Below are positions 1 through 1,971 of a DNA stretch of 1,971 nucleotides, in pieces. Numbering within the stretch: the stretch's first letter is position 1; each line of letters opens with the position of its first letter. Made by a program: the position numbers and the translations under genes. The DNA comes from Escherichia coli (GTDB lineage Bacteria > Pseudomonadota > Gammaproteobacteria > Enterobacterales > Enterobacteriaceae). The stretch is from NCBI RefSeq assembly GCF_003334385.1, contig NZ_QOWN01000105.1, one strand, 5' to 3'. The notes under the pieces were generated by a model. The model searched no databases. It was not told the DNA's origin and saw only the letters and a program-made list of their open reading frames with translations.

Positions 1-1971
1 GCTGATACTGATGCCTGCGGTGGCTTTCTTCATCACCACAACCAGCAAATCGCTGATACTTGCTGTGGGATACCAGTCATTTACCAGCCATGCTGACACC
101 GAAAACTCCAGCGTCATGTGGCCGTGACCAGCTGGCATATCAATAACACCACTGTAAATCAGTGTATTATCCAGCGCGGTACGGTTATAAATTTCAGCAC
201 CATTTTTCTTCACTATCAGGCGGCATGACGAATAAATATCGTTATTCTCCCGCTCATGTTTAGCGCCGCAGAATGCCACCGCTGGAATAACAATTTGCCT
301 GTCAAAAGGCTGATCGTCATAAATCCTGACGGTAATGGTCCCTGATGGCCACCGCTCCGGTGCCCGGGAGTCCCGCGGGAAAGCCTTACCCACTGTTTTG
401 ACAATATCGCCTTCAATCTGATTGGCTGACAGTTTCCCCTTAATCTGACAGTTCTCATTAATCGTGACGTTGTTGAGCGTCCCGGAGTTCGCATTCACAC
501 TGCCACTGATATCCGCATTTTTAGCAGTCAGCTTTCCGTCCGGTGTCAGGGAAAATGCCGGTGGATTTCCACCGCTGGTAATGGTGGGGGCCGTCAGGCG
601 TTTCAGGAACACGTCGTTCATGAATATCTGATCGCCCTGACCAACAAACATCGGTTTTGTGTTGCCATTCGCAGGATTAACCATCGCAATCCTGTCCGCC
701 GCCAGCAGCACCTGACTCTGCATGCCGTCAGGGGTGTTCTCAATACCGGCACCAATACCCGCGATATAAAGGCGTCCGTCCTGCATCTGCTGCAGCTTCA
801 CAGCCCACATGCTGTTCAGGTTATTATTTGTATCAACCTGAACCTTCTGTATCTGCTGAATTGCCGCACTCTGGTCTTCCAGTTTCTTATTGACGGTCTG
901 CGTGATTTCATTGCTGACATCCGTAATGGACGTCCTGATTTCAGCCAGGTCAGGCGCAAGCTGACCGTTATCAATCTGCGTCCACAGCTCCTGAGCCAGA
1001 TGGGTTTTCCCTATCTCGCCTTTGAAAAAATCCAGATAGCCGGATGCATCATCACTCGGCTGACCAACAGCCTCCACGAATGCCGATTTGCCAACGGTGT
1101 TCACACTGCGAACGTAAAAATAATAATCATGGCCCGGTTTGATATTGATACTGGCGGCTATCCAGTACAGCGCCGTGCCAAGATAGCGGGCTGTGGTTTC
1201 AACCTGCCTGATATCGGTAATCCGCTTTTCCGAGAACCAGAACTCAAACTGTACCGTCGGGTCATAAACGGCAAGATGCGGCGTGGCGGTTATCTGAAAA
1301 TAGCCCGGCGTCAGCTCAATCCGCGACGGCACTGCAGGTGCGGCAATCCGGAACGATACCGACGCCGGATCGCCCTGCTGCCCCCACGCATTTACCGCCC
1401 GGACTGTCAGCCTGTAGTTCCCCAGCGCCAGCTGCCTGAAGCGGTATGTGGTTTCTGTCGTCCGGGCCGTGCTGACCAGCCGCTCACTGCCGTCATCCGC
1501 TGCCACGGTCAGGCGAAGCATAAAGCTCACACCCTTCACCACCTTCGGCGTATCCCAGCGCGCCAGCACCTGATATTCCCCGCTGTCTGCGGTGACTTCG
1601 GCGGTCAGGTGCTGCACCGCTGGCGGCGTGACACCATTCACCGTGCTGCTCTGGTCGCCGTCAAAGTGCGCCCCGTTATCCACGATGGCTTCTTTTTCCA
1701 GTACATGCTGCACGGCAGTGATGGCATACGTGCCGTCATCGTTCTCACGGATACTCACACAGCGGAACAGGCGCTGACGCAACGTCGGCAGCTTCAGCCC
1801 CCACACACTGTATTCTGCAACGCCATCAGGAACCCGGTTCACTTTCACCTTAAGTCCGTCGGTGACGGACTGAACCTCCACGCTGACCGGATTACCACTT
1901 CCGTCAACCAGGCTTATCAGCGTGGTACCGGAGGATGGCAGCGTGATTTCACGGTCGAGCGTCAGCGTCCG
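1..1971 (-). CDS. J: Phage tail tip / host specificity protein J (central tail fibre), internal to C-terminal portion; partial at both window edges
   Basis: Manual translation of the reverse complement in the frame starting at position 1971 gives 657 codons with no stop. The protein reads [78 protein letters not shown]...[27 protein letters not shown]...[155 protein letters not shown]...[35 protein letters not shown] recognise this from memory as the lambda gpJ family; the fibronectin-III-like repeats, helical stalk and C-terminal receptor-binding region fit that family. No start codon is present, so the N-terminal part must lie beyond position 1971, and the stop codon must lie before position 1. 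Confidence 0.9.

Follow-up and report, generated by a model that had tools for sequence, protein, structure and literature searches.

A distinct and very common class of receptor-binding domain at the end of a lambdoid prophage J protein of Escherichia coli, with OmpC as its probable receptor

A lambdoid J gene found in an Escherichia coli genome raises the question of which receptor its product would use, lambda's own LamB or another porin. We addressed this for a stretch of E. coli DNA of 1,971 nucleotides, analysed at its whole length and referred to as the window throughout. A preliminary description, made from the letters of the sequence, had read the end of the minus-strand open reading frame as the C-terminal part of gpJ, had placed the true C-terminus at or just past position 1, and had argued that differences from lambda in this part would predict a changed receptor. 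It had also proposed aligning the segment with lambda gpJ and with J alleles of known receptors.

On the minus strand the window (nt 1-1971) is one stop-free frame, which translates into 657 codons and whose exact end is the C-terminal peptide quoted in the preliminary description; the remaining two minus-strand frames contain dozens of stops. The frame aligns with residues 503-1131 of the 1132 residues of lambda gpJ (phmmer against PDB sequences, E = 2.9e-302), and the NCBIfam profile NF049904 (lambda_TipJ) was matched at positions 503-1163 of 1163. The score of 1196.5 bits was reached over 57% of the profile, the window holding the C-terminal 657 codons alone, while the curated cut-off of 1950 bits is set for the full-length protein. 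Homology to lambda_TipJ is collinear via the FNIII/Ig domains, the helical shaft, the beta-prism stalk and the receptor-binding domain (RBD), and four Pfam domains (Ig_J, Ig_J_second, Phage_Tail_Tip and Ig_GpJ_C) follow one another in the expected order (Table 1). Beyond the window itself, the tail cluster order ...H-M-L-K-I-J-lom-stf was found in the nearest relatives, E. coli SCU-104 and phage vB_EcoS-640R1, the cluster of SCU-104 comprising tape measure, M-like, L, K-like, I, J, Lom, Stf and Tfa. The window encodes part of J, the central tail-fibre or tail tip protein, of a lambdoid prophage of E. coli, and the assignment of its minus-strand end to the C-terminal part of gpJ is borne out by phmmer, NCBIfam, Pfam and structure matches. 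That the real feature is a plus-strand gene or RNA and the minus-strand frame a chance ORF has practically no probability and is refuted by the 657-codon open frame together with the gpJ homology: short plus-strand ORFs of 33-38 codons do overlap nt 11-263, but no plus-strand ORF in the window exceeds 61 codons, an Rfam search of the window matched no family, a repeat search of it returned just short two-copy chance matches within coding sequence, and neither the strength of the gpJ match nor the stop-filled state of the other minus-strand frames agrees with chance.

The window differs from SCU-104 by a single base, which is synonymous, and all 657 residues are identical. In SCU-104 a TGA stop directly abuts window position 1, and therefore the true C-terminus lies at position 1, within the limits expected beforehand, and no C-terminal domain is missing. 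The frame ends in TAGISIS, the same end as that of PDB chain 9wca (A8 gpJ) and of all close homologues. The range of nt 1-450 that had been singled out at the outset comprises the RBD and, preceding it, ~19 residues from the end of the beta-prism stalk.

Table 1. Features of the J frame in the window. Domain names and the limits of the helical shaft are taken from PMC11101478.
Feature	Position (nt)	Residues	Strand	Basis
Receptor-binding domain (predicted Ig-like beta-sandwich)	1..393	527-657	(-)	Pfam Ig_GpJ_C PF12421, model 1-135/135, E 2.6e-37; last codon nt 1-3
Beta-hairpin tip KHERENNDI	235..261	571-579	(-)	Aligns with lambda ~1045-1053, around the 1048-1049 indel site
Codon D632	76..78	632	(-)	Aligns with lambda D1107
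Codon C568 (tgc)	268..270	568	(-)	Class alignment
Codon I523	403..405	523	(-)	Equivalent of phage 21 J I1025, trimer axis just above the RBD
Approximate recombination junction	378..393		(-)	Megablast ends, sliding identity, flanking peptides
Central straight fibre (beta-prism stalk)	394..810	~388-526	(-)	Pfam Phage_Tail_Tip PF09327 on 370-498; PDB 8jvm fragment matches 364-521
Alpha-helical shaft	811..1053	~307-387 (lambda 809-861)	(-)	Alignment to lambda gpJ; limits after PMC11101478
Two fibronectin/Ig-like domains	1024..1647		(-)	Ig_J PF24421 residues 109-212, E 6.3e-42; Ig_J_second PF24489 residues 214-316, E 1.5e-39
Hub-domain end and linker	1648..1971	1-108	(-)	Alignment to lambda gpJ 503-610; gene runs on beyond the window

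An AlphaFold model of the last 158 residues, built as a monomer, has a pLDDT of 80.9 and nine strands. Its best matches in the PDB are 9wca, 9wcb, 8xck and 8xcj (TM 0.78-0.82, E 1e-16 to 1e-19), with 64% identity and TM 0.78-0.79 to A8 gpJ (9wca/9wcb) and 45% identity and TM 0.80-0.82 to lambda gpJ (8xck/8xcj). The predicted fold of the RBD is thus the Ig-like beta-sandwich of the solved gpJ RBDs. Differences between allele classes of this domain concentrate in four segments, at residues ~533-544, 569-582, 597-608 and 626-638, which coincide with the places where natural J homologues have published indel hot spots (lambda residues 1012, 1048-1049, 1077-1078 and 1107; PMC6646904). Along the chain of the monomer model, the variable segments and a set of conserved loops (DQPFD, NG and PAGH) come in turn, as is expected if the variable loops share one end of the sandwich. 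We infer that the variable segments would correspond to the bottom loops L1-L4 of lambda, which face the receptor (PMC11101478).

Identity of the RBD to other J proteins was measured across window residues 522-657 (136 residues). As the proposed alignment makes clear, the segment is homologous to the lambda RBD (residues ~996-1132; PDB 8xck and 8xcj, with LamB), an Ig-like domain that has the corresponding place in J, at an identity of 42.6%. The ev099 type gave 43.6%, BP-4795 62.1%, A8 62.9%, and phage 21 and Lambda_ev087 65.9%. Identity to the O157:H7 prophage PPompW and to 1A2 is 93.4%, gapless across all 136 residues and with equal length of all four variable loop segments. Still higher values were found for Stx2a_JNE, JLK-2012 and 2G7b (94.1%), vB_EcoS-640R1 (95.6%), PhiR55_1 (96.3%) and SCU-104 (100%). 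Judged by these identities, the RBD of the window belongs to the 1A2 allele class, the next class (A8, phage 21 and BP-4795) standing at 62-66%, and it is with this class, whose tested member 1A2 uses OmpC, that the comparison with J alleles of known receptors groups it. The supplementary DNA from which the 1A2 end was obtained is recoded, and the PDF text carries OCR frameshifts; the frames were stitched and then verified by exact match to the J of PPompW. The resulting 150 C-terminal residues are identical to those of J of the O157 prophage PPompW_EH2246 (e.g. LC567836), which fixes the true 1A2 sequence. A wide protein search with the RBD returned almost solely short, partial or frameshifted E. 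coli/Shigella fragments, none with annotated receptor information, and these hits were used solely to sample the diversity of the class. For a guess that the LR59xxxx phages (such as Lambda_ev087 and 2G7b) came from the A8/1A2 engineering screen we found no support.

Nucleotide identity read in 90-nt steps reveals a mosaic gene. Residues 1-300 are lambda-like (87-100%). Residues 301-450, that is the helical shaft and the upper stalk, fall to 12-74% against lambda and are ~96-100% identical to Lambda_ev087, ev099, 640R1 and PhiR55_1; in the helical shaft region itself the figures are 12-44% to lambda versus ~100% to the same four. This block includes a stretch (residues ~332-360, nt 892-978) which appears as a gap in the lambda gpJ alignment and by which the helical shaft is 28 residues longer than that of lambda. 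Residues 451-510 are similarly close (81-94%) to every sequence compared, save Stx2a_JNE and BP-4795 (70-89%), and from about residue 527 on the match is to the 1A2 class alone (84-96%).

Moreover, the Megablast matches to Lambda_ev-type phages end at window nt 378, and the 20 residues that lead up to the RBD are exactly those of A8 but differ from 1A2, with 1A2-type sequence following directly. These observations place a recombination junction (~nt 378-393) at the RBD boundary, upstream of which, in the coding direction, the gene is of the A8, phage 21 and Lambda_ev087 type. Just above the RBD the stalk of the window reads QIK...DIV, as in A8, whereas that of 1A2 reads RVL...DLV. The last ~20 stalk residues and the 19-residue C-terminal strand are identical or nearly so to those of A8 gpJ, which shares the fold; however, relative to the window the A8 RBD lacks 4 residues in loop segment 1 and has 5 additional ones in segment 2. 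Phage 21 J (OL657228) has a gene architecture like that of the window, including the long helical shaft, and its stalk is nearly identical up to residue ~527, I1025 being the counterpart of window I523, but the two part in the RBD. Recombination at a domain boundary has thus joined the RBD to its stalk, in keeping with the modular exchange known for the J specificity region, an independently exchanged module (PMC6646904). Accordance with the preliminary description extends to its prediction from differences to lambda, given the low identity, the divergence of all four variable loop segments and the 1A2 class of the domain, all of which suggest a changed receptor. Rather than a lambda RBD bearing point substitutions, the domain is a separate and very common allele class in a recombinational mosaic gene.

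What is known of the receptors in this family comes from a few systems. Brodel et al. (Nature 2024; PMC11338833) built chimeras in which lambda J carries the C-terminal part of a natural J variant from an E. coli phage, and screened them on a lamB deletion strain. Two of these chimeras, A8 and 1A2, were characterised, and both deliver DNA into cells lacking lamB as well as ompC only if OmpC is provided (PMC11338833). A8 accepts the OmpC of both MG1655 and EDL933, whilst 1A2 accepts the EDL933 type and not the MG1655 type (PMC11338833). A later preprint has 1A2 targeting O157 via OmpC (10.1101/2025.02.28.640725). Moreover, PDB entry 9wcb, in which OmpC chains are present, is titled 'Open state of A8 gpJ 713 central tail fiber with OmpC G17 from E. 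coli EDL933'. Because the RBD of the window falls in the class of 1A2, an OmpC user, and A8 was solved with OmpC, the receptor is probably OmpC and not lambda's LamB; for 1A2 the use of OmpC rather than LamB is known from experiment, and for the window it is assigned by sequence. The RBD departs from that of lambda in each of the four variable segments, the host-range residue S1012 of lambda is replaced by Pro, and D1107, also a host-range residue, aligns with an Asp whose surrounding loop is unrelated. The name gpJ would suggest LamB by default, but this was rejected as the best reading in view of the identity to the lambda RBD and of the 1A2 data.

The way in which such a domain would act can be drawn from lambda and A8 as models. 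The trimeric J fibre would bear three copies of the RBD at its distal end, and their variable bottom loops would enter the extracellular mouth of a trimeric outer-membrane porin. Porin binding would spread the RBDs, upon which the beta-prism stalk would twist, the helical shaft flip and the tail tip open, such that DNA is ejected. This RBD-triggered opening has been shown for lambda and LamB (PMC11101478), and for A8 two corresponding states are indicated by the titles of PDB entries 9wca (closed) and 9wcb (open, with OmpC). Lambda and the window share the conserved top-side motifs DDxPFDRQI, KNG, DMPAG and KK..GIS, and the window presumably has lambda's trigger mechanism.

Porin choice is labile among J proteins. 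The native receptor of phage 21 is LamB, a single I1025T change adds the use of OmpC and further mutations add OmpF (PMC11336670); moreover, the phage 21 RBD, which is identical to that of Lambda_ev087, is 81% identical to that of A8 even though the one phage uses LamB and the other OmpC. The gpJ RBD of the window might likewise use a porin other than OmpC, either LamB like lambda and phage 21 or else OmpF, or might use several, its substitutions relative to 1A2 having shifted the specificity. We consider this unlikely, yet the positions concerned deserve attention. Nine residues differ between the two RBDs (given as window residue, position, 1A2 residue): I523L, I550V, C568S, R574K, N576H, N577T, K588R, D632N and S655T. 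Several of these lie at known host-range hot spots. At the equivalent of phage 21 I1025 the window has Ile where 1A2, like most relatives of its class, has Leu. At the equivalent of lambda D1107, one of two residues always required for the switch of lambda to OmpF (PMC6646904), the window has Asp where 1A2 has Asn, and three more differences (R574K, N576H and N577T) fall in the hairpin 571-579. Against a different porin stand the gapless identity to 1A2, with loop segments 530-543 and 597-608 unchanged between the two, and the far lower RBD identities to lambda and phage 21. The behaviour of 1A2 also speaks against it, since at an MOI of 50 it delivered into just 5% of cells of LamB-positive wild-type MG1655, compared with 98% for wild-type lambda (PMC11338833).

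OmpC hence stays our preferred receptor, and the differences from 1A2 bear on which of its variants would be accepted. Within the allele class, represented by 16 distinct RBDs, the nine residues of the hairpin 571-579 hold 8 of the 22 variable positions, a value reached in 20 of 200000 permutations, and this hairpin is a polymorphism hot spot within the class. Variation is not enriched in the four inter-class segments taken jointly, which hold 11 of the 22 variable positions in 56 of the 136 residues (p = 0.25), nor in DSSP-defined loops (p = 0.93). Residue 632 is tri-allelic (D/N/G) within the class, and Cys568 is unique to the allele of the window among the 16 distinct members, the others having Ser or Arg. 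Given the nine RBD substitutions and the A8-like stalk, the range of OmpC variants accepted may differ from that of 1A2. A more specific proposal, that the sub-allele defined by Ile523, Cys568, the REN-N hairpin at 574-577 and Asp632 recognises OmpC variants other than those of 1A2, such as the K-12 type, or several porins, is doubtful and is offered tentatively.

Lastly, we consider how widespread the domain is and whether this copy would be in use. The 408 nt that encode the RBD were matched in 3367 of 5426 complete E. coli genomes at a coverage of at least 80%, mostly with 90-95% identity, and 103 records reach at least 99%. For the window as a whole, matches were found in 4620 genomes; J-like places number 2 per E. 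coli genome at the median and as many as 16, and RefSeq labels the matches 'gpJ: phage attachment tail tip protein J'. Nevertheless, the copy in the window may be a non-functional remnant in its genome, with the RBD end intact and J broken upstream, in a defective prophage where it would serve as recombination stock only. To this we attach an appreciable chance, though we do not favour it. The nearest genome is SCU-104, the next best being at 98.7%, and in SCU-104 the part of J that lies upstream of the window has undergone rearrangement: in the coordinates of an intact J the gene runs J(1-1667) + J(137-633) + J(733-3480), which RefSeq gives as two pseudogene pieces. A neighbouring tail gene of SCU-104 has an internal stop, and the number of J-like places per genome makes recombination partners plentiful. 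These points have to be set against a window that runs without stop or frameshift across its 657 codons, against the synonymous nature of the sole difference from SCU-104, and against relatives at 98% identity that are annotated gpJ with no pseudogene wording in their listed feature names. The J region of SCU-104 also carries ydfK, pinQ and tfaQ. Because of the rearrangement in SCU-104, the copy in the window, if it comes from a close relative of that strain, may be defective and never built into a virion; this concerns its expression and not the identity of the domain, and is compatible with the reading of the window as the end of J with a probably OmpC-directed RBD.

In summary, the feature itself is ordinary and already known, gpJ being annotated in thousands of genomes and the protein being identical in a RefSeq genome. 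What is added is a distinct and very common RBD class, the tested member of which works through OmpC and not LamB, and which engineered phage particles already employ. Comparing the RBD of a lambdoid J allele with those of 1A2, A8, lambda and phage 21 allows its receptor class to be assigned, an assignment that is unsafe at 60-80% RBD identity. The natural variation of the hairpin 571-579 and of residue 632 could be used to tune the OmpC-variant range of phage-based delivery vectors. Moreover, if the sub-allele of the window does recognise OmpC variants of its own, these two sites would be where OmpC-variant specificity is naturally fine-tuned in the class of J RBD that is most widespread in E. 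coli.

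The receptor-binding domains (RBDs) of phage 21 (OL657228) and Lambda_ev087, taken as the last 136 codons of J, are 100% identical to one another and 81% identical to the RBD of A8, an engineered gpJ chimera that binds OmpC. The reported native receptor of phage 21 is LamB, despite this similarity. Therefore, RBD identity of 60-80% cannot tell receptor class.

The window RBD belongs to the allele class of 1A2, a second OmpC-using chimera. In the source data for Extended Data Fig. 2 of the paper describing both chimeras (supplementary file 10; PMC11338833), panel C as stored repeats, for 1A2 and A8 with OmpC-EDL933, the values that panel B gives for OmpC-MG1655, which conflicts with the text of that paper. 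Separate source data (8) give 98% delivery for 1A2 with EDL933 OmpC (PMC11338833). The behaviour of 1A2 on EDL933 OmpC was taken from the latter data and the main text, instead of from the stored panel C (PMC11338833). Within this class, the window allele carries Cys at position 568, where all of the other distinct members sampled (15/15) carry Ser or Arg. C568 is also found in E. coli SCU-104, the nearest genome to the window.

Coordinates of features in the window and in related J loci
Feature	Sequence	Position	Strand	Details
C568 codon	Window	268-270	minus	End of strand running into variable hairpin
Extra shaft stretch	Window	892-978	minus	Residues ~332-360
Rearranged J	NZ_CP053284 (L003, E. 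coli SCU-104)	5998-10905		J(1-1667) + repeat of J(137-633) + J(733-3480)
Region downstream of J	L004 (PPompW_EH2246, O157 prophage)	2182-3694		Short hypothetical ORF + T3SS effector gene espO

The SCU-104 genome contains six J-like places, and the frame holding the window sequence is open across 947 codons. The rearrangement of J in this strain looks like recombination among J copies of one genome. In PPompW_EH2246, a short hypothetical ORF and espO take the place of the usual lom-stf genes and are cargo, inserted straight after the RBD-coding end of J. The coding region of the first Ig-like domain in the window contains an imperfect inverted repeat (1555-1623; 19-nt arms, 84% complementary, 31 nt between), for which there was no Rfam match and which we have no reason to think functional.

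Lastly, the alpha-helical shaft of gpJ in the window exceeds that of lambda by 28 residues (four heptads), with no sequence relation between the two there. The long shaft is common to phage 21, Lambda_ev087, ev099, 640R1, PhiR55_1 and PPompW, and the NCBIfam profile (1163 positions) incorporates this version. Judged from these sequences, it is the short shaft of lambda that is the exception within this small comparison.
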